A stretch of DNA of 64,000 nucleotides, from the IMG/VR virus record IMGVR_UViG_3300042691_020576; one strand, 5' to 3'. Both the position numbers and the translations under genes were made by a program. The notes under the pieces were generated by a model that had not been told where the DNA came from, ran no database searches, and worked only from the letters and a program-made list of their open reading frames with translations. Of the stretch, positions 5,874 to 20,009 are shown piece after piece (position 1 is the first letter of the stretch; every line of letters begins with the position of its first letter). This stretch comes from a virus (Duplodnaviria; Heunggongvirae; Uroviricota; Caudoviricetes).

Positions 5874-6380
5874 TTATTCTGTAATATTATCTTCATGAGA
5901 GAATCCAGCTCCATCAAATTCAGGACCTTCATCATCATCCTCTTCCTCTTCTTCCTCTTCTTCCTCATAAGGAAGGGCGAGAGTGACTTTGTTGTCATAG
6001 AGGATTGGATTGATTTCATCTTCTTCTTCAAAAGTTTCATCATCTATGTCCAAATATACAGCTCCATCCCATTCATTGAGAATGTAATTGATGTCTTTGA
6101 GAGTGATGTCTCTTAGTTCATCCACATGATCACCTTCATCCCACCAGCCAATTTCTTCTGGTTCAGCTACAATTAATTCATCATAGATGAGATAGGGCTC
6201 AACAGGTGCACCATGTTTTGTAACAAACTCTTCTAGGGACTCAAAAGGCACCTTTTCAAGTGCCCATATTTCAACCTGTTCTTTGATTGTACCCTGATGC
6301 AGTTTGTTAATGAACCACATACCAGGTTCTAGTTGCTTAGGCATATAGCTCTTAAGCACCAATTCGACTGGATAGTACAT
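5874..6380 (-). CDS. hypothetical protein with poly-acidic C-terminal tail (EEEEEEEEEDDDEGPEFDG)
   Basis: The ORF track gives 5874..6461. The internal Met at 6380 (MYYPVELVLK) avoids the overlap with 6382..6597 and is the likelier start. Confidence 0.45.
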   Translation of the reverse strand: MYYPVELVLKSYMPKQLEPGMWFINKLHQGTIKEQVEIWALEKVPFESLEEFVTKHGAPVEPYLIYDELIVAEPEEIGWWDEGDHVDELRDITLKDINYILNEWDGAVYLDIDDETFEEEDEINPILYDNKVTLALPYEEEEEEEEEDDDEGPEFDGAGFSHEDNITE

Positions 6381-6381
6381 G

Positions 6382-6597
6382 TTAGTCTTTTTTGAGGTGA
6401 GAGAGAATGTCCTTCTCCTTAAATGTTCGCTTCTGAGGATTAGCTGCAAGCATGGGATCATCTGTATTGTCTATACGTACACACAGGTAAATATCATCTC
6501 CCTGATGAGAAATTACCTTCCATGTCTGTTCCATAGACTTACCTGCTGTTCCCATTTCATGTCTTTCAACCTTCTTGGTGAATACTGTTCCTACCAT
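6382..6597 (-). CDS. hypothetical small protein (71 aa)
   Basis: Minus ORF. Confidence 0.4.
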   Translation of the reverse strand: MVGTVFTKKVERHEMGTAGKSMEQTWKVISHQGDDIYLCVRIDNTDDPMLAANPQKRTFKEKDILSHLKKD

Positions 6598-6600
6598 AAC

Positions 6601-6858
6601 TTATTGATTTTCAAGTAAAAGTTGTCCTTCAAAGTCATAAAATGAATACATAATAAAATCATTATGAAATAATTTAAAATTTTGACTGATTGTACCATTA
6701 CATCCTTCAGGAAATCCGCTTATTCTTAATACTTCCCAATCTTCTCCATTATGTTTTCCTGTAGCAAACACTATTCTTCCATCTTTGGATTTCATCAATT
6801 TTGGAAAAGGTTTTCCAGTTTTGTTTTCTGATTCTTTAGTTTTAACTATGATTGCCAT
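6601..6858 (-). CDS. hypothetical small protein (85 aa)
   Basis: Minus ORF. Confidence 0.4.
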   Translation of the reverse strand: MAIIVKTKESENKTGKPFPKLMKSKDGRIVFATGKHNGEDWEVLRISGFPEGCNGTISQNFKLFHNDFIMYSFYDFEGQLLLENQ

Positions 6859-7451
6859 AACTTATTGATTTTTAATACTTTGACTTTACCGTTAGTGAGT
6901 TTGGGTTGTTTACTGACAGGACGTGGGATAAATTCAGTACCTTCTAATTTATCCTCATATACGGTTTCCATCTCCACTTCTACTTCCCATGACTTAGGTT
7001 GAGATAGAGATTGAATGTATTCGTCTATATTCCCTTTAGTAGAAACTTGACTTCCGTATTTTTCGCCAGCTTTAAATGCGGTTTTTATATCCTCCAAAGT
7101 AAACCCTCCTAGAAGTTCTTGTGCTTTTCGGAAACCCTCTTGCCTTAGATAGTTATTGCATTCTTTTCTTGAAGGTATTGACATAGCTCCCCTTTTGCCT
7201 GCTGGGTATAACTCTTCAACATCAACCCATCCTATCTCTTTCTGGTCTTCAGGAGAGAGTGCGGAGAAGTCGAATTGGTCTTGTTGAGATATTACTTTTT
7301 TGAAATCTGCATTAAGTAAAAAAGAAGTATTATTATATTGAAGCAAATTTGATGTTGGTTCATAAAAACAATAATTGCCTTCTTTTATTTTTTCATCAGA
7401 AGTAAGTACGTACCCTTGTGGTAGTTTGTGTAGTGTGTATGTTGGTTTCAT
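6846..7451 (-). CDS. hypothetical protein (201 aa)
   Basis: Minus ORF. Confidence 0.45.
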   Translation of the reverse strand: MKPTYTLHKLPQGYVLTSDEKIKEGNYCFYEPTSNLLQYNNTSFLLNADFKKVISQQDQFDFSALSPEDQKEIGWVDVEELYPAGKRGAMSIPSRKECNNYLRQEGFRKAQELLGGFTLEDIKTAFKAGEKYGSQVSTKGNIDEYIQSLSQPKSWEVEVEMETVYEDKLEGTEFIPRPVSKQPKLTNGKVKVLKINKLWQS

Positions 7452-7583
7452 TTGGCTCTGATTTTAAAGATGGCAATGGTTGTATCGTATATTCTTAATG
7501 ATTCTATTGGATGAATAGATGTGCGTGAAATACAATCTGAGTAAGTTCTTGGCTTCCACACCTCAATAAAATGCGTAGCGGGT

Positions 7584-7970
7584 TTAAGATTGTTCTCTAG
7601 TATCATCGCTAATAATTTGAATAAGGTTATTAATACAAGCTAATTCTGCTTCTTCGTAAGAGCCGTTATACTTTATAGGATCAAGACCAAGTTCTTTCAT
7701 ACCTTGTTTATCGTAAATTTGATAAGTGTATTCTTGAGTTCCTATTTCAATAAGACCAGTTAACCTATATTTATTCCTAAACCATCTAAACACTTGTTGT
7801 TTGAGTGGTAGTGAGATATTCTTGTCTTCAGTGTACCCATTCCAATTATACTCTCCACCCTCCCATATTTCATCAACATCATCAACACTTACAAACCAAT
7901 TAACAGGCATATTGAAGCCTATTTTTTTAAGAGCTAAGGCTTGTTCGTGTGTTACAAATTCTTGTTTCAT
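7584..7970 (-). CDS. hypothetical protein, paralog of 8703..9089
   Basis: Shares the N-terminal pattern T(H/F)EQA(L/K)xLKxxxFN(M/V)P with 8703..9089. Confidence 0.5.
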   Translation of the reverse strand: MKQEFVTHEQALALKKIGFNMPVNWFVSVDDVDEIWEGGEYNWNGYTEDKNISLPLKQQVFRWFRNKYRLTGLIEIGTQEYTYQIYDKQGMKELGLDPIKYNGSYEEAELACINNLIQIISDDTREQS

Positions 7971-8422
7971 AGTTTTCCTTCATTATAAAGTTTAGCAAAA
8001 TCAGATACGGCTAAGAAGACTGCTTCCTTTTCAGAACTACAATTTTCACCTATAACGTAGTAGATGAATAGGTCTGTATTATCTTTATCAATCATTCTCC
8101 AACCTTTTTCTGTCCATTGAATTAATTTTATGTAATACGACTTTACCTTAAACTCCCATTCATCAATAAAGTATTCGTTTGTTTTAGCATTACTGCTATC
8201 TACCGACAACCTTGTATTTGCTTTTATGAACTCAACAGCTTCCATTAACCAGTTCCAGTCTGAATGAAACTTCATAGACATGGTTTCAATCATTTTTGGT
8301 ATCGCTCCGAATTTAGTGGGATATTCAAATATGTTAAAGTCTTTGTCTGCTGGAGTTGTATTTACATAACCAAGCATCAAAGCTATCTGCTCACTACGCT
8401 CTTGTATTTCTTGTTGTGTCAT
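7967..8422 (-). CDS. hypothetical protein (151 aa)
   Basis: Minus ORF with ATGA overlap. Confidence 0.45.
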   Translation of the reverse strand: MTQQEIQERSEQIALMLGYVNTTPADKDFNIFEYPTKFGAIPKMIETMSMKFHSDWNWLMEAVEFIKANTRLSVDSSNAKTNEYFIDEWEFKVKSYYIKLIQWTEKGWRMIDKDNTDLFIYYVIGENCSSEKEAVFLAVSDFAKLYNEGKL

Positions 8423-8706
8423 AACATCTTTTTAATCATATCTGAATTTAGTGGTTTACCATTATCATAAAACCCTTTTTCAAATAAGGTAACTTGATTA
8501 CCAGAACCATACATGAAATAATTACCTCTAATTGTAACACCTGCTGTAATTTTATAGGCACTATTTTCGGAATTAAAAAAGGTAATAGCTTCATCAATGT
8601 TATGAAAAGCTCGAAAATGAGAATTAACTTTTTTACCCTCACCGTAATTCTGTGTTTTATACCAAACATTAATAGTTATAAAAACTACTTCATGATTATT
8701 TTTCAT
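8419..8706 (-). CDS. hypothetical protein (95 aa)
   Basis: Minus ORF with ATGA overlap. Confidence 0.4.
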   Translation of the reverse strand: MKNNHEVVFITINVWYKTQNYGEGKKVNSHFRAFHNIDEAITFFNSENSAYKITAGVTIRGNYFMYGSGNQVTLFEKGFYDNGKPLNSDMIKKML

Positions 8707-9089
8707 ATCAAGTTGTTTAGTACGTAATCAAATGCTTCTGAGTAAGCTTCTTGTGGCGTGTTATAAAGAGTATTTTCATTATCTACAACACCACTAACTA
8801 CTCTCCTCCAATTAGATTTGAGCTTTTTAGCTTTACAGTAATATCTGTCACCGTTTATTTCACAATAGGCCCAAATACCATGTACCACTCTCAACCATTC
8901 TACTACTTGCCATTGTTCTGGTTTGCTATAACAATTATAGGTACAACAGTTGTAATCTATATCCCAATGCTCATCTTTATAATCTTGTCCTTTTAAATCA
9001 AAGGCCCATTGTGTAGGTACATTAAATTCTTTCTCTTTTAGCTTTTTAGCTTGCTCAAATGTTACGTATGTTGGTTTTATCTGTGTCAT
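8703..9089 (-). CDS. hypothetical protein, paralog of 7584..7970
   Basis: N-terminal TFEQAKKLKEKEFNVPTQW matches THEQALALKKIGFNMPVNW of 7584..7970. Confidence 0.5.
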   Translation of the reverse strand: MTQIKPTYVTFEQAKKLKEKEFNVPTQWAFDLKGQDYKDEHWDIDYNCCTYNCYSKPEQWQVVEWLRVVHGIWAYCEINGDRYYCKAKKLKSNWRRVVSGVVDNENTLYNTPQEAYSEAFDYVLNNLI

Positions 9090-9292
9090 GGTACAAATTT
9101 TACATCATTCTTAATGTAGCGAAATATATCATCCCAATTACATGGCAGTATTGCAAACACCACTATGTAAATGAGAGTGAATATTATGCTAATTACTATT
9201 GCTAATTCACTATCACGTTCATTATCAAAAAGGAACCAGATGAACATGAGAATTATGAAGTAGATGATGATGTCTGCGTAATGTATTGTCAT
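9086..9292 (-). CDS. small predicted membrane protein (68 aa)
   Basis: Two long hydrophobic stretches (IIIYFIILMFIWFLF and IVISIIFTLIYIVVFAIL). Confidence 0.4.
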   Translation of the reverse strand: MTIHYADIIIYFIILMFIWFLFDNERDSELAIVISIIFTLIYIVVFAILPCNWDDIFRYIKNDVKFVP

Positions 9293-9294
9293 GG

Positions 9295-9636
9295 TTATTC
9301 ATTTACGATTTGAAAATAAATGGTTTCAGGGTATTCCCCAAACACAAAGAGTGTCACAGGACATATCCAGAGGACATGATTAACAATTTCCTCATTGTAT
9401 TCATGTGCTATGTACGTAGCACCAAAGTCATCAATACCTATTCTTGTAATCTTGTTACTCAAAGGTTCCTGATGATCAAGCTCTAATGTGATGTTTGTTC
9501 CATTATTGGAAAGAAAGTCTAACCATGTGTCAGCACCAGCAACCATTTCACAATCTGCTTCTGTGCCACCTGCATGAATGTACTCTGGAAGGTCAGCATA
9601 CCATCTGCCCTCCTTCTTGTAGAAAGGTAATTTCAT
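9295..9636 (-). CDS. hypothetical protein (113 aa)
   Basis: First gene of the leftward block, downstream of the ORF-free region. Confidence 0.45.
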   Translation of the reverse strand: MKLPFYKKEGRWYADLPEYIHAGGTEADCEMVAGADTWLDFLSNNGTNITLELDHQEPLSNKITRIGIDDFGATYIAHEYNEEIVNHVLWICPVTLFVFGEYPETIYFQIVNE

Positions 9637-9803
9637 TTGATTTTTGATTTAATGATGACGTAATAACCTGTGTTTAAAGCACCAGGTTTTGTATTTGGTA
9701 GCCAATGGGCTATTGTGCTCACCGTACTTTCTGATGATCTGTAGGTGAGTATTGTACCAGCTCAAAGCGTTCTTTTGTGTTGGTAACATATTTGTTGTTT
9801 TAG

Positions 9804-9902
9804 TAGTCAGGACAGGATTCGAACCTGTACGTCAAGGTCAATGCATTTTCCAAGACACTTGAGATGAATCATAGCGCGTCTAGCCAGTTCCGCCACCTGA
9901 CT
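9804..9902 (-). tRNA. tRNA-like element, non-canonical (about 99 nt)
   Basis: On the minus strand the 7-bp acceptor stem AGUCAGG/CCUGACU encloses a canonical T-arm ACAGG-UUCGAAU-CCUGU. The D-arm GCG-GAACUGGCUAGA-CGC is also plausible. No canonical anticodon arm could be folded by eye. Between the D-arm and T-arm sits a long extended helix: UCAAG-u-GUC loop GAC-CUUGA. Either a class II/intron-containing or otherwise atypical tRNA, or a tRNA-like terminus of a larger RNA. Confidence 0.4.
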
Positions 9903-11090
9903 GTTTATTTAGCACCCTCTTGTCTTACAGAATCAGCCATCAAATTCATGACGTTGCATTTCATTCTGTAAGAGTAGGGTCACGTAGTTAATTACCTGTA
10001 CTTTGGGATACGACTTTGAACTTATCCGTTTTAACTACTTGCTGAGAACTTCTCACAGTAAACAGAGGCTTATCTCATACATCCTCACCTGTGGGTTATA
10101 TTACTATAACCTTCTAATTAACCGTTGGTAGATTTCAACGTGTATCTTGATAAATTTTTCATCAGATTAAAAAATAACTACTCCACCCATCATTTCTGAC
10201 TAGGGTAAGTAGAAGCACTCATTCGTGTTGTCAGGATAATGCCTAAGTAGTTTTAACCTGCTCTGTTATATTCCTTGCTCAAGGGAACAACACGTGTGGA
10301 TTACTCCGTTAATTTCCAGATTCACCCAAAGTTGCGAACTTTGCTAAGGCTCTTGGACATCAATTAACACCCTGTCAATTCAGGGTAACCTTCTTTGTTT
10401 AAAGTCGTATCAATGTTTAACGACTGACTGTTTAATGTGATTCACAGACAACATAGAAGATAACAACTACTGCCTTCTAAGTAGGGTAGTAAGCGTTGCT
10501 CATGTTGATTCATGATTAAGTTACCTCGGGTAACCGCTTGCCACATCGACTCAAACCACTCACATCTTAGAACTGTGAGATAACTCTCCTTACTCTGACA
10601 TGGTTAAGATTCATCCTGAACTATTTAGGATTTACAGCCGTTGATAACTGCTCAAGAGTATTGTTTGTAGTCAATCAGTAGTTGTTAAAGAACTTAAAAA
10701 AGCGTGGTTGGATTTATTATTAGGCTTTAACCACGTACAATTATTTCTAATTGGTAGCCATTCCACGCTTAAAAATGTAGTTGGTGGTAGGGGGATTCTC
10801 CCTACTTTTTAGGCAAAGACTAAATCATGGCTTGCAAGGTAGTTTTGCTTTTACACAACCCCACCGAGCCACACCAACTACAAAGAACTTAACAGGGCGC
10901 AATAATAGCAGGAATTGTATCCATCATCACTATCATCCTTTCCCTGTTTTTTATCTTAAAGAACTTATCTTATATATCTATGGGCTTTTGTGTGGGCTAT
11001 TCACTTGGTTTGCGTGTTTCCCAGAAACCCCAGTTGAAATTGTATTTATGGGCATCGCCCAACGCAATAAACACATACACCCATAGATAT
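9903..11090. ncRNA. ORF-free, hairpin-dense segment; candidate large structured ncRNA(s)
   Basis: About 1.2 kb with no ORF over 60 aa on the minus strand and only two weak plus ORFs. Many perfect local hairpins: CAAAGTT-gcg-AACTTTG around 10326; ACCCTG-tcaatt-CAGGGT around 10364; TTACC-tcg-GGTAA around 10525; CGTGGTT...AACCACG around 10703; AAGCGTGG...CCACGCTT around 10699-10773. Flanked by the tRNA-like element and the tmRNA. Confidence 0.3.
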
Positions 11091-11294
11091 TTAAGATTCT
11101 ACATAATCCATCATCTCTTTCATTTTCAATATCAACAGTTCCATTTCGTTCCTGTTGAGATAGAGTCTTGGACTTGGAGAATCATTCATTTCTTTTGCTT
11201 CAATAACAAGTCCATTAAATCCTTCTGTAGGATAGATTGAAACATTTTGATCTTCTGTTGCTATTTCAACTTTATGCCAAATTTTGTTTGTCAT
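11091..11294 (-). CDS. hypothetical small protein (67 aa)
   Basis: Minus ORF between the structured region and the tmRNA. Confidence 0.3.
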   Translation of the reverse strand: MTNKIWHKVEIATEDQNVSIYPTEGFNGLVIEAKEMNDSPSPRLYLNRNEMELLILKMKEMMDYVES

Positions 11295-11374
11295 ATCTTT
11301 TGATTAATGATTTAAAATTACCCCACCAGTATAGAAATACAGTGGGGTTTGTTACCAATCTACTAACAACTAAG

Positions 11375-11774
11375 TGGACCCGAAGGGAGTCGAACCCTTG
11401 TCCAAACAAATAGTTTGTACATACAACGTCTCACATGCTTAGTACTGCATTGCTGCTGCACCGTAAACACTCACTTATATCCTAAGAGTGCGGTAAGGAT
11501 TTTGGAGTCACTGGTTTGTGACTGCTCCACCACCTAGTTTTGAGAAAACCAGGAAAACAGTTTGTTCAGTTTATGTTGCCAGGTATGAACTACCCCGTAG
11601 GACTTAGGCAGCTACTGCTTCAGTCTGGAAGATAGAAGCCAGGATAGCTTCACCTTCTGCTACACGCTGAGAACGAGTCTTAGCATTTGTTTTTCGATAC
11701 AGTATTAAGAGACAGTATCATCTCTCTGCATGTGTACATACCCACTCCTTTGCTGTCAAAACCAATACGGGCCC
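11375..11774 (-). ncRNA. ssrA: tmRNA (transfer-messenger RNA, SsrA-like)
   Basis: Minus-strand 5' end GGGCCCG-UAUUGGUUUUGACAGC parallels E. coli GGGGCUG-AUUCUGGAUUCGACGGG. The 3' end has a T-arm AAGGG-UUCGACU-CCCUU followed by CGGGUCC-A. The acceptor pairs GGGCCCG/CGGGUCC with G3:U70, the alanine identity element. Internal tag-like ORF ...EGEAILASIFQTEAVAA followed by UAA. Length 400 nt. Confidence 0.75.
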
Positions 11775-11849
11775 ATATGCTTTTTGACAAAGATAATAAA
11801 AACAGCCCTATATTTCAAGGGCTGTTTTCTTCCTCATCATAACCCAAAT

Positions 11850-12212
11850 CTACATATGTTCTTTTACCAAAGTAGCAAGTTCTCTCACCTTGTCAAATGA
11901 GAAAGTTTGACAACCAACCTTCACCACATTTTCACTAGTGATGATTTTTGCTTCGTAATTATCTGTGAGTTGCATCTGAACCACTTTTGTCTGAACCATC
12001 AGTTTCAGAAATCTTTCAAAAGTGACAGTTTTGTAAGAAGTTGTGCTTCTTGATCCAAAGATTTCAGGAACTGCTAAGTTGAGAACACAAGTTGGATATT
12101 GTTCATATCCTTCTTCTAAGTAAGTGTTACAAAATTTAATTCCTTGAGCTTTTGCCAGTGCGACAATTGTTTCCCACTGATACTTTTCTGTAATTACAAA
12201 TGAGTATTCCAT
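11850..12212 (-). CDS. hypothetical protein, member of the VGCQK paralog family
   Basis: C-terminal NYEAKIITSENVVKVGCQTFSFDKVRELATLV matches the motif shared with 13408.., 14371.., 14757.. and 15155... Confidence 0.55.
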   Translation of the reverse strand: MEYSFVITEKYQWETIVALAKAQGIKFCNTYLEEGYEQYPTCVLNLAVPEIFGSRSTTSYKTVTFERFLKLMVQTKVVQMQLTDNYEAKIITSENVVKVGCQTFSFDKVRELATLVKEHM

Positions 12213-12278
12213 GTTATTTTCTTTTGTTGATGTGAATAGCTCCAGAGGATTGTTATTTCCTCTGGAGCATGAATTGAT

Positions 12279-13070
12279 TTACTTTCTGAAGAATTCCATC
12301 ACTTGACGACCACTGTGTTCTGAAACTCTCATTTCCCAGCCATCATTCACAACCAAGCACTCAAATTCTTTACCATCAGGTGCCCAACCTTGACCAATTA
12401 TAATTGGTTTGTCACCTTGATTACTTGTTGTAACTGTCCAAGACTTATCAAAATTAAATGGCTTTTTTACAATGGCTTCTGGAAACTTCTCCTTGATTTT
12501 TTGTTTCCATTCACTGCATGCTGAATCATAAGCTTCTTGAATGAATTTTTCACTCACTTCAAATGTTTTCATTTCTTCTTTGGGTTTTTGAGGTTTTGTA
12601 ATGTTGAATTCTAAAATTTCTGCTCCTGGAATGTAAGGAATGATGTCGTCTATCATGAAATAGTCTCCATACTTCTTCTCTTCTAAATAAGAAAGCACAT
12701 GGAAATTACGTGCTTTTTCTGTCTCAACATAATACAGAAAAGGTTGGTCTAATTTCTGAGCATCCTTCCAGTTTTCAGATCGCTCAAGTCCTTCATGTCC
12801 ATAAGCTGTTTTGTCAATTGGAGTGTATTTCTCCCCAACTTCCAGATACACTTCTACATCTTGAGGAAGAAAGAAATCTCCACCTGTACCCATTTTTTCT
12901 GTTAAAATGAGCACTTTTTCTCCGTCATGTGTTTTGTCAATACCTTTGAAGTAGAGAAATGGTTGACCTTTTTCTCTTGCTCTACGTAAAACGTTAGATT
13001 CATCAAAAGGATCTCCAACAGACTTACTTTTGGCGATATATTTACCGCCTACAACGAATTTGTTTTGCAT
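12279..13070 (-). CDS. hypothetical protein (263 aa) with internal QPFLY repeat and C-terminal KTFxV..FPEA module
   Basis: Internal duplication QPFLYFKGIDK.../QPFLYYVETEK.... C-terminal MKTFEVSEKFIQEAYDSACSEWKQKIKEKFPEA is paralogous to the N-terminus of 13966..14352. Confidence 0.55.
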   Translation of the reverse strand: MQNKFVVGGKYIAKSKSVGDPFDESNVLRRAREKGQPFLYFKGIDKTHDGEKVLILTEKMGTGGDFFLPQDVEVYLEVGEKYTPIDKTAYGHEGLERSENWKDAQKLDQPFLYYVETEKARNFHVLSYLEEKKYGDYFMIDDIIPYIPGAEILEFNITKPQKPKEEMKTFEVSEKFIQEAYDSACSEWKQKIKEKFPEAIVKKPFNFDKSWTVTTSNQGDKPIIIGQGWAPDGKEFECLVVNDGWEMRVSEHSGRQVMEFFRK

Positions 13071-13094
13071 GATTTGGGTTTTTGAATGAGAAAA

Positions 13095-13406
13095 TTACCA
13101 ATCACCAGATGCACCTGCTCCTCCAGAATCACCACCATCGAATCCTCCAAAGGTATCAGAAGATGAACTGCCATCACCACTGTCTCCACTACTGAAGGTG
13201 TTGAACAGAGATGAAACTGCTACAGCCGTATCAATGATACTACCAATACCACTATCATCATCATCATCTGATCTGCGTTCAGGCATGATAACGAAGTTTC
13301 TTTGTTCTAGAGAGGAAAGTTCTCTATATCCATACACGCTAACTGCTTGGTCTTTAACATATTGTCTACCATTACTTGCAGTGAAAGTTTTAATGCATTG
13401 ATACAT
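13095..13406 (-). CDS. hypothetical protein with Asp/Gly/Ser-rich low-complexity C-terminus
   Basis: DDDDDSGIGS...SGDSGDGSSSSDTFGGFDGGDSGGAGASGDW. Confidence 0.4.
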   Translation of the reverse strand: MYQCIKTFTASNGRQYVKDQAVSVYGYRELSSLEQRNFVIMPERRSDDDDDSGIGSIIDTAVAVSSLFNTFSSGDSGDGSSSSDTFGGFDGGDSGGAGASGDW

Positions 13407-13407
13407 G

Positions 13408-13911
13408 TTATTTGGTTTTTCTGAGTGAAAGCATTTTCTTATACACCTCTTCTACCTTCTTGAAAGGAATCTTCTGACAACCTACCTGAAGTTCATTACC
13501 ACTGTATTTAGCACCATAGGTACCCACTCTAATATCAAAAGTTGGTGGTGGATTCTTCAAGATGAATTTGTTACGATTTATATTCACCCATTTACCATCA
13601 GGCATTTTCAATTTTACAGATTCTGCACCTTCTTCAAATGCAAATACAACAAGTGCAAGTCTGGTGAGTGCTTCAAAATCATGATTTTTTGCTGTAGGCC
13701 AACTACCACCATGATGTCCATAACCATATACTTTTGATGCAAGTTTTTCTGCATCTAATCCCATTGCGGTAAATACAATACGATTGTTTGTTGAACGATT
13801 GAACATGATATAAGCATGTTCTACATATCCTACTCCACCTTTAAAAATGAGCTGATCATTTGCTTTTAACGTCTTACTGTTAAGACTATTGAATGATTCA
13901 TACACTGCCAT
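13408..13911 (-). CDS. hypothetical protein, VGCQK paralog family
   Basis: C-terminal YGAKYSGNELQVGCQKIPFKKVEEVYKKM. Confidence 0.55.
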   Translation of the reverse strand: MAVYESFNSLNSKTLKANDQLIFKGGVGYVEHAYIMFNRSTNNRIVFTAMGLDAEKLASKVYGYGHHGGSWPTAKNHDFEALTRLALVVFAFEEGAESVKLKMPDGKWVNINRNKFILKNPPPTFDIRVGTYGAKYSGNELQVGCQKIPFKKVEEVYKKMLSLRKTK

Positions 13912-13965
13912 AAAATGAAATTTAAAAAGGGCTCGAAGGCCCTTTATTTGTTATTGAATGCTGTG

Positions 13966-14352
13966 TTAAACGTAATGTTTGATGTTTACGAGCTGATAGG
14001 TTTCACCATCCATGTACTTTTCGTGATCGTTAACTTCACTAAGATATTGCTTACCATGAACAGGATATGCTTCAGGAAACTTGGTACACACATCGTTGAT
14101 GAATGCGAAGTTTTCCATAGACCATTCTCTGTTAGCAGTAGGCATTCTCACTGCCAGATAACCATTTTGGATGAAAATGTATTGTTTTGAATGATCGTAT
14201 GGCTCTTTATTCACTGTTTTGTAAATTTTGTCCAAGAAGGTTTCCTTCTTAAACGCCTCTGGAAATTGTTCTTCCAGTTTCTCTCTCCATTCTCTGTTTG
14301 CAACTTTGTATGCTTCTTTAATAAATGCTTCGTCTACTTTAAACGTTTTCAT
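13966..14352 (-). CDS. hypothetical protein with N-terminal KTFxV..FPEA module
   Basis: N-terminal MKTFKVDEAFIKEAYKVANREWREKLEEQFPEAFKKETF is paralogous to the C-terminus of 12279..13070. Confidence 0.55.
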   Translation of the reverse strand: MKTFKVDEAFIKEAYKVANREWREKLEEQFPEAFKKETFLDKIYKTVNKEPYDHSKQYIFIQNGYLAVRMPTANREWSMENFAFINDVCTKFPEAYPVHGKQYLSEVNDHEKYMDGETYQLVNIKHYV

Positions 14353-14370
14353 GATTTGTGGTTTTTGAGA

Positions 14371-14754
14371 TTATTGATTGATGTTTTTTTCTAGTTCGAG
14401 AATCTTTTCAAAAGGAATAGTCATTCCCCCGTTCACAACAACTGTCTTAGTCTCATAATTGATGACAGCTTTGTAACCCTCATTAAGCTGTATTTCCTGT
14501 AAATGAGATTCCAAGAAGAATGCAACAAATTCAGCAATGGTTGAGACAGTTTTATATTTGCCAGTACCATACTTTGTTTGCACAATCTTTGTTCCAGTCC
14601 AATAGATGTATGGATATTCATCATCAGGAAATTCTGTGCCAGCATAAATGCAGACCCCATACTTGCGTAAGAGGTCCACTAATGCTTCCTGTTCAATTGC
14701 GCTTGGATTATTAAATCCAATACTGAATTCAGGCAAGTGCTTTTTCAGCTTCAT
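14371..14754 (-). CDS. hypothetical protein, VGCQK paralog family
   Basis: Motifs PDDEYPYIYWTG and YKAVINYETKTVVVNGGMTIPFEKILELEKNI. Confidence 0.6.
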   Translation of the reverse strand: MKLKKHLPEFSIGFNNPSAIEQEALVDLLRKYGVCIYAGTEFPDDEYPYIYWTGTKIVQTKYGTGKYKTVSTIAEFVAFFLESHLQEIQLNEGYKAVINYETKTVVVNGGMTIPFEKILELEKNINQ

Positions 14755-14756
14755 AA

Positions 14757-15143
14757 TTACGATTTTGTGTTATCTACAATTTTTGCAAGCTCCATGATCT
14801 TTTCAAAAGGAATTTCCTCACTGCCAATGGTAACTATTTCCTTTTTAGGATCAATGTATGCTGTATATTCTTCATTCAATTGCAATGATGGATAGTAGCT
14901 GAAGAACAGCTCCAGAAACTCCTCAACAGTGTCAACAACTTTCTTATCATCAAAATCTGATGTCTGACACAAATGCAAATCTTCACCATCCCAATACAAA
15001 TAGGGATATTCAGGATCAAATTGGGTGGTTTCTTCATAAACTTCAATGCGATTTGCTCTGAAGAAATTAATAACTGCATTTTGTGCAATTGCTGACTTAA
15101 CAGACAATGCGATATTCTCGCTTGGTAGTAAACGCTTTTTCAT
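14757..15143 (-). CDS. hypothetical protein, VGCQK paralog family
   Basis: Motifs DPEYPYLYWDG and YTAYIDPKKEIVTIGSEEIPFEKIMELAKIV. Confidence 0.6.
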   Translation of the reverse strand: MKKRLLPSENIALSVKSAIAQNAVINFFRANRIEVYEETTQFDPEYPYLYWDGEDLHLCQTSDFDDKKVVDTVEEFLELFFSYYPSLQLNEEYTAYIDPKKEIVTIGSEEIPFEKIMELAKIVDNTKS

Positions 15144-15154
15144 GTAGTTTGATT

Positions 15155-15679
15155 TTATGATTTTGTTTTATTGTAATACTCTGTTGTGAGTTTTTTGTGC
15201 AACGAAGACCAATAGTCATGTCCTTCTTCTGTTGCGCACCATGTAAATGCACCATGCAAAGCTTCATGTAAAGTTTTAACACCACTTTTACACTTATTAG
15301 GATCTTTTCTTACATATTTCAATGCACTTTCAACATAGTGATGTGGAAGAAAAGTCATCCATTCTTCATATGTCATTTCTTTTATTAATGGAATCTCTTT
15401 ATTAACTATTCCATCATACAACTCTTTGACTTTTTCAAAAGCAATTTTCTGACAACCCACTTCTACAACTTTTTCATCATAATTGATTTTAGCTGTATAT
15501 TGATCGTTGAGAATCACTGTTTTCTCAGATGTTGTAAACAATGAAATGAATTCTGTAATGGATGTCACTGTACGATCATAATGCAGTTGACCTTTTGTTT
15601 GAACCAAATGTTTTCCATCCCAACATATATAGGGATAATTTTCATCTGGAAATTTTAAATTTACCCCAAACAGGAACAC
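15155..15679 (-). CDS. VGCQK paralog family member, apparently frameshifted (N-terminal part in 15642..15767)
   Basis: PDENYPYICWDG and YTAKINYDEKVVEVGCQKIAFEKVKELY motifs. Immediately upstream, a 41-aa ORF (15642..15767) in another frame encodes MTKLPLLTILLENKNHVEQEAALELLRKKGV. This matches the N-termini of paralogs 14371.. and 14757.. (AIEQEALVDLLRKYGV). The frame switch lies near the homopolymers GCGTAAAAAAGG / TTTGGGGTAAA. Confidence 0.5.
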   Translation of the reverse strand: MFLFGVNLKFPDENYPYICWDGKHLVQTKGQLHYDRTVTSITEFISLFTTSEKTVILNDQYTAKINYDEKVVEVGCQKIAFEKVKELYDGIVNKEIPLIKEMTYEEWMTFLPHHYVESALKYVRKDPNKCKSGVKTLHEALHGAFTWCATEEGHDYWSSLHKKLTTEYYNKTKS

Positions 15680-15868
15680 CTTTTTTACGCAAAAGCTCTA
15701 ACGCTGCTTCTTGCTCTACATGATTTTTGTTTTCTAGCAAGATGGTAAGTAGTGGTAACTTTGTCATGATTATAAAAGTTTATTTTTTGATTAAAAATGG
15801 TGTGTGAGTGCTTTCATAATTACTCCCAATTATCTGCGCCAACGTTGGGCACACCATTTAGTGGATTG

Positions 15869-16309
15869 CTACATCCCCTGTTTTGACAGTTTTTTGATAT
15901 GTTTCTTAATCCAACGTTCTCTTGGCCACCACCAACCTAGTGGATACCAATAATTGGGCTTGCAAAGCAAATCTTTGTACACATCATAGAAGAAATTCTT
16001 TGGTGCATGATCGTCAATATAACAAAGCAATGCGTCTTCTTCTTCAGCTGTGATGATTTTTGCATAATAAAGTCGAATGATTAATCCACATAAGCCAGTT
16101 CCAAAGAACTTTTTATTTTGAAGTATTACTTCTAGTAGATCGCTTAACTTTCTCATTTTCAAGTAGTTGAATGTGTTTTTTAATCCAGTTGATTCGTGGC
16201 TTGATTGATCCTCTTTTCCAAAAATATATCTCATCCACAAACTTTTTGGGCTCATGTCTATCAATATATCTATGCACTTTCCATTTCTCATCCAAAGTGA
16301 AATAATCAT
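15869..16309 (-). CDS. GLCxW/WIKKHI tandem paralog 5
   Basis: C-terminal MRKLSDLLEVILQNKKFFGTGLC...RERWIKKHIKKL. The likely true start is the internal Met near 16156, because the ORF-track start overlaps the neighbouring paralog. Confidence 0.5.
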   Translation of the reverse strand: MIISLWMRNGKCIDILIDMSPKSLWMRYIFGKEDQSSHESTGLKNTFNYLKMRKLSDLLEVILQNKKFFGTGLCGLIIRLYYAKIITAEEEDALLCYIDDHAPKNFFYDVYKDLLCKPNYWYPLGWWWPRERWIKKHIKKLSKQGM

Positions 16310-16433
16310 GGTAGTACATTTCTGTCACCCACATACATAAACCAGTGGAAAATAAATCCTTTCGTTCAAGCAGCATTTTCAACAGCTCACGAACAGGTAG
16401 ATTTCTTTTACTATCAAGATAAACTTTTTCCAT
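16113..16433 (-). CDS. GLCxW/WIKKHI tandem paralog 4
   Basis: LPVRELLKMLLERKDLFSTGLCMWV...PRINWIKKHIQLL. The ORF track extends it to 16511; the internal Met at 16433 abuts the upstream paralog's stop. Confidence 0.5.
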   Translation of the reverse strand: MEKVYLDSKRNLPVRELLKMLLERKDLFSTGLCMWVTEMYYHDYFTLDEKWKVHRYIDRHEPKKFVDEIYFWKRGSIKPRINWIKKHIQLLENEKVKRSTRSNTSK

Positions 16434-16435
16434 GG

Positions 16436-16819
16436 CTATTTCTTTTTGGTGAGGAGATTGATGTGCCTTTTGATCCAACGTCTTCTTGGAGCTATTTCTC
16501 CATATTCCCAATAAAACCCATCACTATCACCAGGCCAATACCATATTCTATCAAAACTCCATTTGCTTGGTGGATTGTCAAGAATGAATTTGCTCAAAAG
16601 CTGGTGTTCCTCAAACGTGATTGTTTTATAGACAAGCAATGTTTGCGCCCATGTACACAACCCAAGATAGAACCTATGCTCGTTTTCGAGCATAAGTTCT
16701 AAGAGTTCAACGATATTTCTCATGTTCAAGCTTTTTAATGTGACGTAATAACCATTGGATTCTTGGTTCTGGATCTCCTTTTTTCCAATAGAATGGTGCT
16801 GATATTCCGAAAAAGGCAT
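16436..16819 (-). CDS. GLCxW/WIKKHI tandem paralog 3
   Basis: MRNIVELLELMLENEHRFYLGLCTWA...PRRRWIKRHINLL. The internal Met at 16723 is a possible alternative start. Confidence 0.5.
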   Translation of the reverse strand: MPFSEYQHHSIGKKEIQNQESNGYYVTLKSLNMRNIVELLELMLENEHRFYLGLCTWAQTLLVYKTITFEEHQLLSKFILDNPPSKWSFDRIWYWPGDSDGFYWEYGEIAPRRRWIKRHINLLTKKK

Positions 16820-16994
16820 TCCATGAAGAGAACGTTGACGGTTTGTTATCCTTGATGTATGTCTTCAAGAGGAAATACTCTTGTGAATCAATCAGATCAC
16901 ATCCATACAAATCAAGAGCCCAGTGGCACAATCCATCTCTAAAGAGGTGACGATTCTGATTCATCACCTCTAATAGCTCTAATACTGTTCTCAT
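16707..16994 (-). CDS. GLCxW/WIKKHI tandem paralog 2
   Basis: MRTVLELLEVMNQNRHLFRDGLCHWA...PRIQWLLRHIKKL. Confidence 0.55.
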   Translation of the reverse strand: MRTVLELLEVMNQNRHLFRDGLCHWALDLYGCDLIDSQEYFLLKTYIKDNKPSTFSSWNAFFGISAPFYWKKGDPEPRIQWLLRHIKKLEHEKYR

Positions 16995-16998
16995 GTCA

Positions 16999-17364
16999 TC
17001 AATCTTTTAGGAGTGATTTAATATGTTTCTTGAGCCAACGCTTTCTTGGGCCCAGTTCAAATGTTTTCCAGTAGTAAACACTGTCTGGTCCATTCTGATA
17101 AAACAGAGCATCATAAGTCCATCTCTCTGTAGGTCTATTTCTGCCAATGTAATCTCGTACATCAAATTCTTCTCTAGCTGTAAAATAACCAGCAGTTTCC
17201 ATACTTGCTGCCCACATGCACAAGCCTACATTAAATAGTTCTTCATGGTCTAACATTCTCTGTAACAGAGCAGCCATACGTTTTCTTTCAGCTTTCATGA
17301 TTGTCTTGTTTTTTGGTGAGGAATTCAAATGCAATTCCACCGAAGATGTAAATTGCAAATGCAA
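16999..17364 (-). CDS. GLCxW/WIKKHI tandem paralog 1
   Basis: AALLQRMLDHEELFNVGLCMWA...PRKRWLKKHIKSL. The internal Met at about 17295 is a possible true start. Confidence 0.5.
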   Translation of the reverse strand: MHLQFTSSVELHLNSSPKNKTIMKAERKRMAALLQRMLDHEELFNVGLCMWAASMETAGYFTAREEFDVRDYIGRNRPTERWTYDALFYQNGPDSVYYWKTFELGPRKRWLKKHIKSLLKD

Positions 17365-17605
17365 GAGAGAGACTTACAACCAAACCTGCTTGACCTGTTT
17401 TCTCCAGTTGGAAATAACTGAAATAGTTATCATATATCACTGGTGAGGTGAACATAATAACAAATGCGATTAGTAAGGAAATTGCTCCAATGATTTTGTT
17501 TTTCACGTTGTTAGTTTTTAGAGATGTAAAAAAGTGATGGCATTCCATTAGGATAGACGACAACAGCAGCATCAAAAGTTGGATTGAGTGCTGATGGGTA
17601 CACAT
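17288..17605 (-). CDS. predicted membrane protein (105 aa)
   Basis: Hydrophobic segments LLMLLLSSILM and IIGAISLLIAFVIMF and LVVSLSLAFAIYIFGGIAF. Confidence 0.45.
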   Translation of the reverse strand: MCTHQHSIQLLMLLLSSILMECHHFFTSLKTNNVKNKIIGAISLLIAFVIMFTSPVIYDNYFSYFQLEKTGQAGLVVSLSLAFAIYIFGGIAFEFLTKKQDNHES

Positions 17606-17666
17606 CTGTTACTCTGAACGTAGTGTACATGGTGATAAATTCGTACATGTTAGTAGACGTTTTAGA

Positions 17667-17960
17667 TTATGGGTGAAGATCCATTGGTGCAACAATCCAG
17701 CTCTGGTCAGAATACATGAAGTGAACACCTCCTTCATATAGAAGATAATCTTCATATGATGTACAATCCTCATCATCCTGTTGAGCATAATATTCCTCTC
17801 TGGACATAGGATTGAACTTGGCTTCTTCTGTTCTCTGTTCAGCATATGCTCTAGCTGATTCTTCTGTAGCAAACACTTTCTCAACATAATGATGGTGTTC
17901 ATCGTGGTTTAGTCCATTGTCATAGATAACAAGGAACACTTTTGGTAAAGTTTCTGACAT
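17667..17960 (-). CDS. hypothetical acidic protein (97 aa)
   Basis: First gene of a leftward unit, downstream of a 400-bp noncoding gap. The overlapping 17609..17902 ORF in another frame is treated as a shadow. Confidence 0.45.
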   Translation of the reverse strand: MSETLPKVFLVIYDNGLNHDEHHHYVEKVFATEESARAYAEQRTEEAKFNPMSREEYYAQQDDEDCTSYEDYLLYEGGVHFMYSDQSWIVAPMDLHP

Positions 17961-18347
17961 ATAGATTGGTTTTTGAGTTTAGCAATAAATTGCCCTTCTG
18001 CAACTCAGTTGTAATAGTAGTATGATTTCATGTAGTCTCATGTAGAGTCCACTACAGCCTGAACTAAATCAGGATAACATCGACCTCAGTTGGGTTCTAT
18101 TACAACTGCTCTTCCTTAGGAGCTGATTAAATGATTAGTGTTTCTACTTCGCAATTAAGCACTCTTAAGTAACTAATCCGTTGACCTATTACTAGGTATC
18201 TGTATTCTGCTGCAGATTTATAATTAATCAGGTGGTTTCACATCTTACTCTCCATTTTACAGGAACATTACAGGTACGCTCTTCTGCGCTTTGATACCTT
18301 TTTTGTAAGAAGTCTTTATATCCACAAGAGTTATGGTGCATTAACAA

Positions 18348-18370
18348 AAAGAGCCCTTAATGGGCTCTTT
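18348..18370 (-). terminator. hairpin terminator overlapping the stop of 18357..18593
   Basis: Perfect palindrome AAAGAGCCC-ttaat-GGGCTCTTT, followed on the minus strand by TTTGTT. Confidence 0.45.
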
Positions 18371-18593
18371 GTTCTTGTAATTCCTCAAGAGCAGCATCAT
18401 ATGCCTTGAGATGCCTTTTGGCTATCCCAGCACGTGAATAAATGAGCTCTTCCATTGTATACACGCACATATATATCATCATGTGTCGTGAAGACATGTG
18501 GAATTCCTCATTAATAATCATTGTGAGCATATTTACAGGTCTTGGTGGTGTAGCTACAGCATTCACCAGTCCAATTTTTGGAATTGTTTGCAT
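18357..18593 (-). CDS. hypothetical small protein (78 aa)
   Basis: Minus ORF. Confidence 0.4.
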   Translation of the reverse strand: MQTIPKIGLVNAVATPPRPVNMLTMIINEEFHMSSRHMMIYMCVYTMEELIYSRAGIAKRHLKAYDAALEELQEQRAH

Positions 18594-18604
18594 AACTGAT
18601 TGAT

Positions 18605-18853
18605 TTAGAAGTTATAGTCATATAAATCAAATTCCAATTGCTGCTCACGCTCATAATTGCGTTGATCAGCTTCATCCTCCAGAGCTTGTCTGTTAGAGCT
18701 TGTGTCTACAACAGAGCCCATAGACTGATTCTCAAACCATGTTTCGTACAGTGTCACAACAAAACCACTGCTTGTTAACACTAATGCATATCTTTCCATA
18801 ACGTTGTTAGCGGCTGTATACAGCCATTTTATAGATTGGGATAATAAGGACAA
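18605..18853 (-). CDS. hypothetical small protein (82 aa)
   Basis: Minus ORF. Confidence 0.4.
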   Translation of the reverse strand: MSLLSQSIKWLYTAANNVMERYALVLTSSGFVVTLYETWFENQSMGSVVDTSSNRQALEDEADQRNYEREQQLEFDLYDYNF

Positions 18854-18870
18854 AAGAAAAAAGAACCCTG

Positions 18871-19113
18871 TTACAGGTTCTTATAATTAATACCATAGTT
18901 TAACAATGTTTCTCTATCCAAGGGAAAATTCTCCCAACACCATTGTCTAACACCATTCAATTCCTCCATAAAGGGAACTTTAAATAAATTAGTGTATAGA
19001 CTAATGACAATCACTCTATCTCCATTGTCTAACATTTCATCTAATACAGCACTAGGAAAACTATCTTCATGTAAATACCTAGTTTGCTTGGTTTTGTTAA
19101 TGATGATGTACAT
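18871..19113 (-). CDS. hypothetical small protein (80 aa)
   Basis: Minus ORF. Confidence 0.4.
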   Translation of the reverse strand: MYIIINKTKQTRYLHEDSFPSAVLDEMLDNGDRVIVISLYTNLFKVPFMEELNGVRQWCWENFPLDRETLLNYGINYKNL

Positions 19114-19394
19114 AAAGCTATATTTATTGCGTGTTATTTCTTGTTTGTTTGTGGCTCTTACAAAAGCCTTTTATATCCATGATGGTATCTACCACAACTC
19201 TCACTCTCACACAAATTTTCTCATAACTAATTGATTATCAATGACATTTGATAACAATGAGCTTTCCATGTATATTATTTTGTTTAACGACAACATCAAA
19301 AAACCCCGTAAAAAGTTATTTAACGTTAAACAAAATGTTTACTTTTTCAATAACCCACCCTGATGTCTTATGACCCACCCTATATATAAGAAGA

Positions 19395-19418
19395 AGAGAG
19401 CCCCCGAAGGAGCTCTCT
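19395..19418 (-). terminator. rho-independent-type hairpin downstream of 19426..19821
   Basis: AGAGAGC-ccccgaagga-GCTCTCT, followed on the minus strand by a T-rich tract. Confidence 0.45.
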
Positions 19419-19425
19419 TACAATC

Positions 19426-19821
19426 TTAGAACGCAACATCTTCCCAGCTGAGTTCTTCACTCTTAGCAAGGCTGTCAACAGCAAATGCTTCAAGTTGGTC
19501 ACCAGCAGGTTGCATCACGAAGTAGCGCTCACCATCTTCACTCTGGAACACGTTGAGCTTAGCAATGACACTTAACACATCACGCTGACTCTTGCCGCCT
19601 TCCAAAGCTTTGCGAATCACCTTACTAAGTGGCTCACTACAAGGCAGGATGAATTCTTTATCACCCTTCTTAGCAATCAGAGTGACACGCTTGTCACTAG
19701 CGAGATTCTTCTTAGTGAATCTCAAGGAATGACCCTTGAAGTTGCTAGCTACTGTTCCCATGTCTTCGAATGTGAAGTCACCAGTCCCCTGGTACTCGAC
19801 CTTTTTGTAATTTAACGCCAT
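19426..19821 (-). CDS. hypothetical protein (131 aa), first gene of the leftward block
   Basis: Minus ORF abutting the divergent regulatory region. Confidence 0.55.
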   Translation of the reverse strand: MALNYKKVEYQGTGDFTFEDMGTVASNFKGHSLRFTKKNLASDKRVTLIAKKGDKEFILPCSEPLSKVIRKALEGGKSQRDVLSVIAKLNVFQSEDGERYFVMQPAGDQLEAFAVDSLAKSEELSWEDVAF

Positions 19822-19956
19822 TTTGATTTTGATTTTAATGATTAATGATTGGGGAGGCTACCCCAACTCGCTAAATCATGCGTGGGGTTGCTGTTGGAAG
19901 TACCCTCCTCCCCCTTTCACACAAAAGATTTTGCCACAGGAATGTTCCACGTGAAA

Positions 19957-20009
19957 TGTCAGGGTGTAGCCTGACACAGGGGGGAGGTTTGTCAGGGAAT
20001 AGCCTGACA
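19957..20009. promoter_or_regulatory. two tandem 20-bp palindromic operator-like sites in the divergent intergenic region
   Basis: TGTCAGGGtgtaGCCTGACA (19957-19976) and TGTCAGGGaataGCCTGACA (19990-20009), 33 bp apart. Each is an inverted repeat GTCAGG-N6-CCTGAC. Confidence 0.45.

Follow-up and report, generated by a model that had tools for sequence, protein, structure and literature searches.

The question raised by this locus is whether an RNA gene of about 400 nt, carried on the minus strand of a 64,000-nt stretch of viral DNA (Caudoviricetes; the whole stretch is referred to here as the window), is a tmRNA gene of the phage itself, whether that gene is likely to work, and what the unusually long peptide tag that it encodes may be for. 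A first-pass annotation made from the letters of the sequence had placed a tmRNA at 11375-11774. ARAGORN calls a complete one-piece tmRNA of 401 nt at 11374..11774 on the minus strand, the sole tmRNA called in the window, and Rfam model RF00023 matches 11372..11774 on the same strand over model positions 1-374 of 374 with a score of 78.5 bits (E = 8.8e-29; gathering score, 47 bits). The two programs agree with the proposed identity, and the coordinates first given are at most one base off from those of ARAGORN. The elements that had been read by eye are likewise present in the sequence: the acceptor GGGCCCG/CGGGUCC with its G3:U70 pair and discriminator A, the T arm AAGGG-UUCGACU-CCCUU, an internal frame ending ...QTEAVAA-UAA, and a tRNA-like 5' motif, UGGUUUUGACAG, that aligns to the consensus uGGaUUCGAC. 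The window gene is a phage-encoded tmRNA, ordinary in architecture. Phage tmRNAs are already known, and the interest of this one lies in a phage-specific long tag conserved as a peptide, together with a cassette-like distribution among related phages. The fuller reading developed below, which we consider very probable from sequence comparison, is that the window encodes a functional one-piece tmRNA, borne in an accessory cassette of a virulent crAss-like phage that probably infects Bacteroidota.

The features of the locus are as follows, where p counts tmRNA positions from the 5' end and equals 11775 minus the window coordinate.

11850..12212, minus strand: upstream neighbouring ORF of 120 aa without a family match, in the accessory zone
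11798..11829, minus strand: intrinsic terminator of the upstream ORF, a 12-bp stem followed by a U run
11788..11795, minus strand: TATCTTTG, matching the -7 element TAnnTTTG of Bacteroidota promoters and lying 13 nt upstream of the mature 5' end
11768..11774, minus strand: 5' strand of the acceptor stem, GGGCCCG (p1-7, pairing with p393-399)
11728..11752, minus strand: 5' strand of the long helix 2 (p23-47), from a fold of the joined ends
11695..11727, minus strand: pseudoknot PK1 (p48-80)
p48-52 with p63-67, minus strand: PK1 stem 1, AGAGA/UCUCU
p55-60 with p75-80, minus strand: PK1 stem 2, UGAUAC/GUAUCG
p81-90, minus strand: A-rich spacer of 10 nt from PK1 to the resume codon
11604..11684, minus strand: tag reading frame (p91-171), with the GCU resume codon at p91 and the UAA stop at p169-171
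p91-168, minus strand: tag ORF of 26 codons, from ARAGORN and a tblastn self-hit
11439..11603, minus strand: post-tag region (up to p336), the site of PK2-PK4 in canonical tmRNAs, variable in length among homologues
11403..11438, minus strand: 3' strand of helix 2 (p337-372), with the conserved ACUAAGCAUGU block
11375..11399, minus strand: T arm (p376-392), 3' acceptor strand CGGGUCC (p393-399) and discriminator A (p400)
11311..11347, minus strand: hairpin CCCCAC...GUGGGG followed by UAAUUUUAAA, read from the sequence, 27 nt after the tmRNA
11091..11294, minus strand: downstream neighbouring ORF of 67 aa without a family match

The structure of the RNA was assessed on homologues that were found in two ways, L145 through a tRNA-like-domain pattern that is independent of the tag, and L173, L174/L176, L177 and L178 through a 20-nt tag-core pattern. 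Two further hits of the tag-core search (L172 and L175) were discarded as coding sequences, not tmRNAs. Of the 40 pairs specified in the six-sequence alignment, 14 are altered on both sides, and overall pairing is 95%, a result equalled in 0 of 500 shuffles; slid controls are 37-50% paired. All seven acceptor pairs form in the six homologues, with pairs 4-6 changed on both sides; the alanine identity pair G3:U70 is G:U in every one of the six sequences, and the pairs next to it vary. All T-stem pairs also form throughout, with compensatory change in three of five, and the T loop conforms to GUUCGAnUC. Helix 2, which is built of four segments and replaces the anticodon arm, is 100% paired in six sequences in segments H2c (9 bp) and H2d (5 bp), five pairs being compensatory; the alignment of segments H2a and H2b is poor and unreliable. 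PK1 is an H-type pseudoknot that occurs in the same place, 10-12 nt before the resume codon, in five of five distinct subfamily members, with stems that differ in sequence. The post-tag region contains two hairpins, at p180-194 and p222-242, both with covariation; the posterior of the Rfam alignment is low there, and one homologue (L178) carries a 250-nt insertion in this region. The first-pass annotation had proposed folding for PK1 to PK4 as a check, and this succeeded in part: PK1 is found, and for PK2-PK4 manual and minimum-free-energy folding gave only competing pairings. CCA is absent from the gene, the discriminator being followed by CUU. These data demonstrate that tmRNA structure elements are maintained by compensatory evolution in phage-borne homologues, and by its predicted fold the window RNA has all of the sequence and structure elements for trans-translation.

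The tRNA-like domain also bears on the host. The pattern TGGTTTTGACAG...GGACNNGGGTTCGANTCCC, which joins the 5' motif to a generic T arm, matches more than 120 species genomes, nearly all of them Bacteroidota (Flavobacteriaceae, Bacteroidales, Chitinophagales and Prolixibacteraceae), and the domain is therefore of Bacteroidota type. The phage host is probably a member of the Bacteroidota, and SmpB and AlaRS would have to come from it; among the 60 window ORFs scanned, Pfam detected none that encodes SmpB, Clp or Lon. With bacterial RF00023 tmRNAs of this type the window RNA shares the 7-bp acceptor with G3:U70, the T arm, helix 2, PK1, the resume codon, the tag ORF and its stop, as well as the 5' motif, which in the genome scan is nearly confined to Bacteroidota, and a tag ending in two alanines. 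It differs from them in that its tag has 26 rather than 8-10 residues, its Rfam score is roughly half of the 132-145 bits reached by bacterial examples, its CCA is unencoded, and it is borne by a phage. Alignment to Bacteroidota tmRNAs, which had been suggested as a way of telling a host-derived gene from a divergent one, gives a divergent RNA that is ~36% identical (gapped, global) to that of any matched genome, where the mean among those genomes is 58%. A window-specific pattern, in which the 5' motif is combined with the AAGGG T arm, has no match in 185,579 species genomes, and no donor host was found. The low identity, the lower Rfam score and the empty search with the specific pattern together argue that the gene is not a recent capture, and a recently donating host is rejected because the pattern is absent from the species genomes. 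By global identity the window tmRNA is about equally far from other phage groups and from bacteria, and for that reason no claim of phage monophyly is made.

The tag called by ARAGORN for the window is AKTRSQRVAEGEAILASIFQTEAVAA, which has 26 residues and ends in AVAA; the first-pass description of a long, non-canonical tag is correct, and the length proves in addition to be a family trait. The corresponding tags of the subfamily, each of 26 codons, are the following.

L178: AMTKSERVAEGEAILASIFVDEAVAA
L173: AKTQSERVAEGEAILASIFADEAVAA
L145: DKTQSSRVAEGEAILASLFGEVAIAA
L174: AMTQSERVAEGEAILASIFGEVAVAA
L177: AMTQSERVAEGEAILASIFGEVAIAA

The tag is exactly 26 codons long in all six subfamily members, with neither an indel nor a premature stop. 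A core, RVAEGEAILAS(I/L)F, is kept in the peptide while the helices of the RNA vary by compensatory substitution, an invariance that is partly by construction, four of the six distinct subfamily tmRNAs having been recovered through the core and only L145 and L220/L224 being independent of it. The core stretch of the window tag reads RVAEGEAILASIF. Outside the 20-nt search pattern, variable sites fall at first, second and third codon positions in the proportions 6/19, 7/19 and 13/20, and six codons vary synonymously only. Between the window and the independently found L145, no region of the RNA is as well conserved as the tag ORF, at 73% compared with 48-67% elsewhere. The third-position bias and the high conservation of the tag ORF relative to L145 indicate selection on the peptide, and judged by this pattern of substitution the additional ~17 residues, which include the core RVAEGEAILAS(I/L)F, are evidently under peptide-level selection. 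When the tag was compared with the window in six frames, no similar peptide was found in any window ORF.

The length of the tag sets it apart from those of its likely hosts, which are about one third as long. Bacteroidota-type bacterial tags, according to canonical tag calls, comprise 8-10 residues (GENNYALAA and variants) in 108 of 109 genomes, and the sole exception, a tag of 25 residues, comes from a contig of 8.7 kb in a Peribacteria bin. In a set of 40 viral contigs sharing the Bacteroidota-type motif, tags of 17-28 residues (22 contigs; for example DVELSTMTFEDAMAFVGADYAVAA and ANVELSTWTFEDAMAFAEGELEMAA) outnumber host-type tags of 9 residues (eight contigs). The long tags follow a loose common plan, in which a polar start leads to an acidic-hydrophobic core such as E-[GD]-[EA]-A-[IM]-[LA]-[AF] and the ending is of the type (E/D)x[AVLI][AVLIM]AA. 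Some of the tags reported by ARAGORN, such as EPDYIRLVTEVAIKGS and AEYAVAA, were set aside as misplaced or truncated, and several tmRNAs detected by Rfam or nhmmer were missed by that program. The tmRNAs of these viral contigs are often situated inside tRNA arrays, and on metagenome contigs two such tmRNAs occur within ~1 kb of GOLLD RNA. Taken by itself the window gene is an ordinary-looking tmRNA; the significance of the comparison lies in the contrast between bacterial tags of 9 residues and phage-borne tags of 17-34 residues with peptide-conserved cores, attached to the same tRNA-like domain.

If the gene works as its parts suggest, it would be transcribed from a unit of its own between two terminators, and RNase P would trim the 5' end of the transcript. 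CCA would have to be added post-transcriptionally, because it is not encoded, after which the host AlaRS would charge the RNA with alanine through G3:U70, and host SmpB and EF-Tu would deliver the charged RNA to ribosomes halted on mRNAs that are broken or lack a stop codon. Translation would restart at the GCU codon 10 nt after PK1, the nascent chain would gain the 26-residue tag, and release would occur at UAA. The C-terminal AVAA or AIAA resembles the ALAA degron of the host, and by this analogy degradation is the most likely fate of tagged chains. The extension that precedes it probably adds a second recognition element, directing the chain to a particular protease or adaptor; candidate readers of the extension are possibly Lon, by analogy to Mycoplasma, or a Clp system chosen by the phage. 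The benefit to the phage would consist of freed ribosomes and recycled amino acids during infection.

The closest parallel for a tag of this length is the ssrA tag of Mycoplasma, which has 27 residues and is recognised mainly by Lon (PMC8403727). The two tags are alike in length, in a hydrophobic stretch before the C-terminal alanines and in being far longer than a ClpX-type tag, but sequence similarity between them is absent. Mycoplasma is without ClpXP, and Bacteroidota hosts are expected to have it. Among phages, tmRNAs have been described in huge phages, where they occur together with SmpB (PMC7162821), in phage G, with a 13-residue tag (PMC12484599), and in the OM43 phage Melnitz and pelagimyophages (PMC9004378). 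The window gene resembles these in being complete, in belonging to a lytic phage with no integrase nearby and in being accessory within its phage group, and the role proposed for them is likewise to maintain or exploit host translation. It differs in that the known carriers are jumbo or huge phages or T4-like myophages, whereas the present one is a crAss-like phage of ~113 kb whose tag belongs to a conserved family, and the tmRNA of Melnitz is moreover a two-piece molecule with a glutamine riboswitch. The first-pass remark that such genes are rare in phages matches the published count of 402 in 18,146 phage genomes, or 2.3% (PMC9004378). No description of a tmRNA in crAss-like phages was found in the literature searched, where the two terms are mentioned together only through the use of ARAGORN in methods sections or in reference lists. 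Phage tmRNAs are routinely annotated and almost never analysed, and in the present case a tmRNA is documented in a crAss-like lineage as a mobile accessory cassette of a plastic genome zone.

One alternative reading accepts a working tmRNA and places its main value to the phage outside quality control, in counter-defence or takeover of the host, or in a long tag that occupies or redirects proteases or adaptors. The core of the long tag is specific to phages and shows conservation at the peptide level, the gene lies in a hypervariable accessory zone of the type in which anti-defence genes gather, other long-tag phage tmRNAs count RNA-repair domains, ClpP and a ClpA/B-type ATPase among their neighbours, and similar speculation has been offered in the literature (PMC9004378, PMC7162821). 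However, no feature of the window ties the tmRNA to a defence or anti-defence system, the AVAA or AIAA ending is like that of ordinary degrons, and Clp and RNA-repair genes appear near such tmRNAs only in isolated instances, so that we regard this alternative as unlikely. An example of counter-defence or takeover of this kind would be the rescue of ribosomes after mRNA cleavage by host abortive-infection RNases or cleavage induced by the phage. As to the neighbouring genes themselves, on single contigs of other phage groups the distance from the tmRNA is 3.8 kb for a ClpP gene (L005) and 2 kb for a ClpA/B-type ATPase (L010), Clp genes being found near long-tag tmRNAs in only 2 of about 38 loci; the RNA-repair domains seen near other long-tag phage tmRNAs are HAD_SAK_2, cREC_REC and RNA_ligase. 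Such neighbours are leads rather than a pattern, and a guess that the conserved ORF directly downstream of the tmRNA in another phage group is ClpP was disproved. A broader and doubtful proposal is that phages of Bacteroidota-type hosts keep and exchange a tmRNA lineage of their own, whose tags of 23-34 residues would be more than degrons, namely phage-designed peptides that re-route trans-translation products to another protease or adaptor than the host's own tagging does, or that titrate host proteolysis; if this were true, trans-translation would be a tool of host takeover and not housekeeping. If the extension does change the protease or adaptor, phages would reprogram a central quality-control pathway. 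Long tags could also find use as orthogonal degrons, a purpose for which the Mycoplasma tag is already employed.

For the preferred reading of a functional tmRNA in an accessory cassette, the distribution of the gene among related phages and its immediate surroundings are informative. DNA polymerase relatives of the window phage in IMG/VR number 231 at 73-80% identity, on contigs of up to ~115 kb. Where the 10 kb upstream of the polymerase is available in full, 6 of 33 related loci contain a tmRNA (~18%), and a locus with a shorter flank (L224) likewise carries one, giving seven in total, of which five were found with ARAGORN and two more through 3' ends detected with nhmmer. All seven encode long tags; one tag type of the clade (VKSQSERVAEGASIIAMAFASEVAVAA) is related to that of the window, and the others are of different types. 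The window region from ~6.5 to 20 kb is a hypervariable zone, the core genes being common across the clade, and this zone measures 3.4 kb in the closest relative compared with 13.8 kb in the window. The position of the tmRNA within the zone differs in L220 and L226. Of the flanking ORFs, the one of 120 aa has a counterpart meeting the match criteria in 0 of 80 related phage loci, and the one of 67 aa has a counterpart in only one of 80 and in none of those with a full flank. The hypervariability of the zone, the rarity of the flanking ORFs and the shifting sites of the tmRNA together indicate an exchangeable accessory cassette.

The terminator at 11798..11829 and the hairpin at 11311..11347 set the tmRNA apart as a unit of its own, in the same orientation as the adjoining ORFs. 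From its sequence the hairpin is probably the terminator of the tmRNA, and a strict terminator scan made no call there. The match of TATCTTTG to the -7 element may be regarded as a weak lead only; it was not counted as promoter evidence, since TAnnTTTG is unenriched in the window (68 matches against 66 expected).

These observations also bear on the possibility that the gene is a decaying or non-functional passenger, a once-captured ssrA or a remnant related to attP, recognised as a tmRNA by its score but no longer working. Such a remnant might be expected from an Rfam score of 78.5 bits where bacterial tmRNAs reach 132-145, from the unencoded CCA, from PK2-PK4 pairings that were not identified and from the presence of the gene in only about 18% of related phages. 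Nevertheless, the gene is complete and not a 3' fragment, compensatory changes keep its helices across divergent homologues, PK1 persists at a near-constant distance from the resume codon, the tag frame is uninterrupted, free of indels and invariably 26 codons long, with most of its variation at third positions, and the tmRNA has its own flanking terminators; decay is accordingly very improbable.

The wider genome context places the gene in a phage. ORFs from ~20 kb on lie mostly on the plus strand and form a structural operon, within which PHROG matches from 22 kb on identify TerL (phrog_6681), portal (phrog_6547), major head protein (phrog_11589) and large virion proteins, and Pfam identifies CrAss_Ring_1 and CrAss_Ring_2 (PF24228 and PF25702) among the 60 window ORFs scanned. 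On the opposite flank of the tmRNA lies a DNA polymerase (phrog_1252, 2309-4267, E = 2e-140), on which side there is also a weak replication-initiator match, so that the tmRNA is located among leftward early or replication-side genes, outside the late operon. The purposes suggested in the first-pass annotation, ribosome rescue during late protein synthesis or the countering of host defences, are speculative. The giant ORFs mentioned in the first-pass annotation are real, one encoding 1659 aa at 39976-44955 and another being an open frame of more than 3773 aa that runs from ~52.7 kb to the window end. The TerL, portal and major capsid protein families, the tail ring proteins and the giant ORFs downstream of the structural block are hallmarks of crAss-like phages. 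The window TerL is only 25-41% identical to those of GenBank phages, with Leptolyngbya phage Lbo-JY46 as the best match and crAss-like phages of Cellulophaga next, at 30%, and by this gene content the window represents a divergent crAss-like lineage. The first 50 kb of Lbo-JY46, the closest cultured relative by TerL, contain no tmRNA, and GenBank phages show no DNA similarity to the tmRNA region or to the first 25 kb of the window.

tmRNA genes are classic integration sites, and a host ssrA at a prophage junction was named in the first-pass annotation as the finding that would overturn a phage origin. That the window spans a prophage-chromosome junction and the gene is the host's own ssrA is exceedingly improbable and is rejected: although eight viral contigs with the Bacteroidota-type motif carry the 9-residue host-type tags (GENNYALAA-like) that junctions or carry-over would produce, here phage genes flank the tmRNA on both sides, from the DNA polymerase to the structural operon, with host genes on neither, no integrase was found with Pfam among the 60 window ORFs scanned, the tmRNA 3' end has no second copy (att duplication) in the 64-kb window, GC content is uniform across it, the tag and RNA sequence are unlike those of any of ~120 Bacteroidota tmRNAs, the window-specific pattern is absent from species genomes, and synteny with another viral contig spans the tmRNA. 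That contig, IMG/VR 3300047551_001636, is syntenic on both sides of the gene at 70-97% nucleotide identity and carries a tmRNA identical to that of the window. Over 1079 nt the two contigs differ at one site only, within a patchwork of identical segments and segments of 75-90% identity, and this near-identity may reflect recent exchange rather than selection.

The tmRNA gene lies in a hypervariable zone of accessory genes (window positions 6500-20000), with the replication genes on one side and, on the other, the structural operon, which is transcribed divergently. This zone extends over 13.8 kb in the window, whereas L181, the closest relative, has 3.4 kb there, and most of its small ORFs are without a counterpart in the 80 related phages. 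Comparison with L002, the sequence of the syntenic IMG/VR relative, reveals a single difference in 1079 nt over window positions 10958-12036, flanked by segments of only 75-90% identity, and further identical tracts occur, for example 351 nt at 14582-14932. Such a mosaic is typical of related phages that have recently recombined.

Adjoining the tmRNA gene is a stretch of ∼1.2 kb (9903-11090, sense on the minus strand) that has no minus-strand ORF of 45 or more amino acids and is made up of modules that may be present in the window and absent from the IMG/VR relative, or the reverse. The following features were located in this stretch and immediately beyond it.

11090-10968, minus strand: element of ∼125 nt with an 11-bp closing stem, 100% conserved
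10958-10967, 10882-10891 and 10687-10696, minus strand: motif TAAGTTCTTT, three exact copies within 280 nt
about 10880-10790, minus strand: hairpin, stem kept but interior replaced
10365-10700, minus strand: structured RNA candidate, family unknown (also L001 2637-2964 and L180 4007-4222)
about 10290-10225, minus strand: hairpin, stem kept but interior replaced
9804-9902, minus strand: tRNA-like element, 36 bits against Rfam tRNA

The candidate RNA at 10365-10700 has a minimum free energy of -91.7 kcal/mol versus -73.8 kcal/mol for shuffled sequences (z = -3.75), and none of 100 shuffles is as low. It is closed by a 12-bp stem, UAACAACUACUG/CAGUAGUUGUUA, that does not vary among three sequences, and at least one compensatory change is found (AUCCU/AGGAU to ACCCU/AGGGU). 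A search of Rfam with this region gave no match at E ≤ 1; the core of the candidate is present too in L180, a viral contig otherwise unrelated to the window.

The exact copies of TAAGTTCTTT sit at the module junctions of the ORF-free stretch, and the motif also precedes the structured RNA candidate in both L001 and L180. Allowing up to one mismatch, the whole window contains 25 matches versus 11.3 expected, a count reached by none of 100 shuffles. It could serve as a promoter of the phage or as a site of recombination.

The tRNA-like element at 9804-9902 has good acceptor, D and T arms with a 36-nt stretch at the place of the anticodon loop, and ARAGORN run without its intron option calls no tRNA there. 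The relative L001 carries two longer versions in tandem (∼130 and 145 nt, at about 3270-3660), which share the acceptor AGUCAGG/CCUGACU with the window element. The elements of the window and L001 are not ordinary tRNAs.

Loci with long-tag phage tmRNAs contain further RNAs and protein genes, as follows.

L010 5416-5821, minus strand: GOLLD RNA (Rfam RF02032), 328 bits
L004 1-388, minus strand: GOLLD RNA (RF02032), 267 bits
L173 191-325: Hatchet ribozyme (RF02678), 82 bits
L178 4514-5172, plus strand: tmRNA in the same subfamily as that of the window, acceptor likewise GGGCCCG
L005 189-728: ClpP (PF00574, E = 2e-27)
L010 172-1935: ClpA/B-type ATPase (AAA_lid_9, AAA_2, ClpB_D2-small)
L178 6175-7212: AAA ATPase

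Both GOLLD RNAs, on metagenome contigs, lie no more than about 1 kb from long-tag phage tmRNAs, and the ClpP and two ATPase genes lie within 1-4 kb of such tmRNAs. In other loci, domains of RNA repair (HAD_SAK_2, cREC_REC and RNA_ligase) are among the neighbors. The L178 tmRNA has a 250-nt insertion inside a hairpin of the post-tag region; this insertion matches no Rfam intron family at the gathering threshold.

Among bacterial matches the sole long tag is ANSLKQAQDAEARSVFAGRGLALAA (25 amino acids; L042 3108-3515). The contig that carries it, 8.7 kb long, was binned as Candidatus Peribacteria; it could come from a phage and have been binned wrongly, or the long tag could be a true feature of CPR bacteria.

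In L145, whose tmRNA falls in the same subfamily as the window's, the DNA polymerase homologue is found in two halves (6210-9132; 70% and 80% identical to the window protein) parted by ∼1 kb, an arrangement suggestive of an inserted intein, intron or homing endonuclease. Leptolyngbya phage Lbo-JY46, the closest cultured relative by TerL, has a gene for a LAGLIDADG endonuclease after its DNA polymerase gene.
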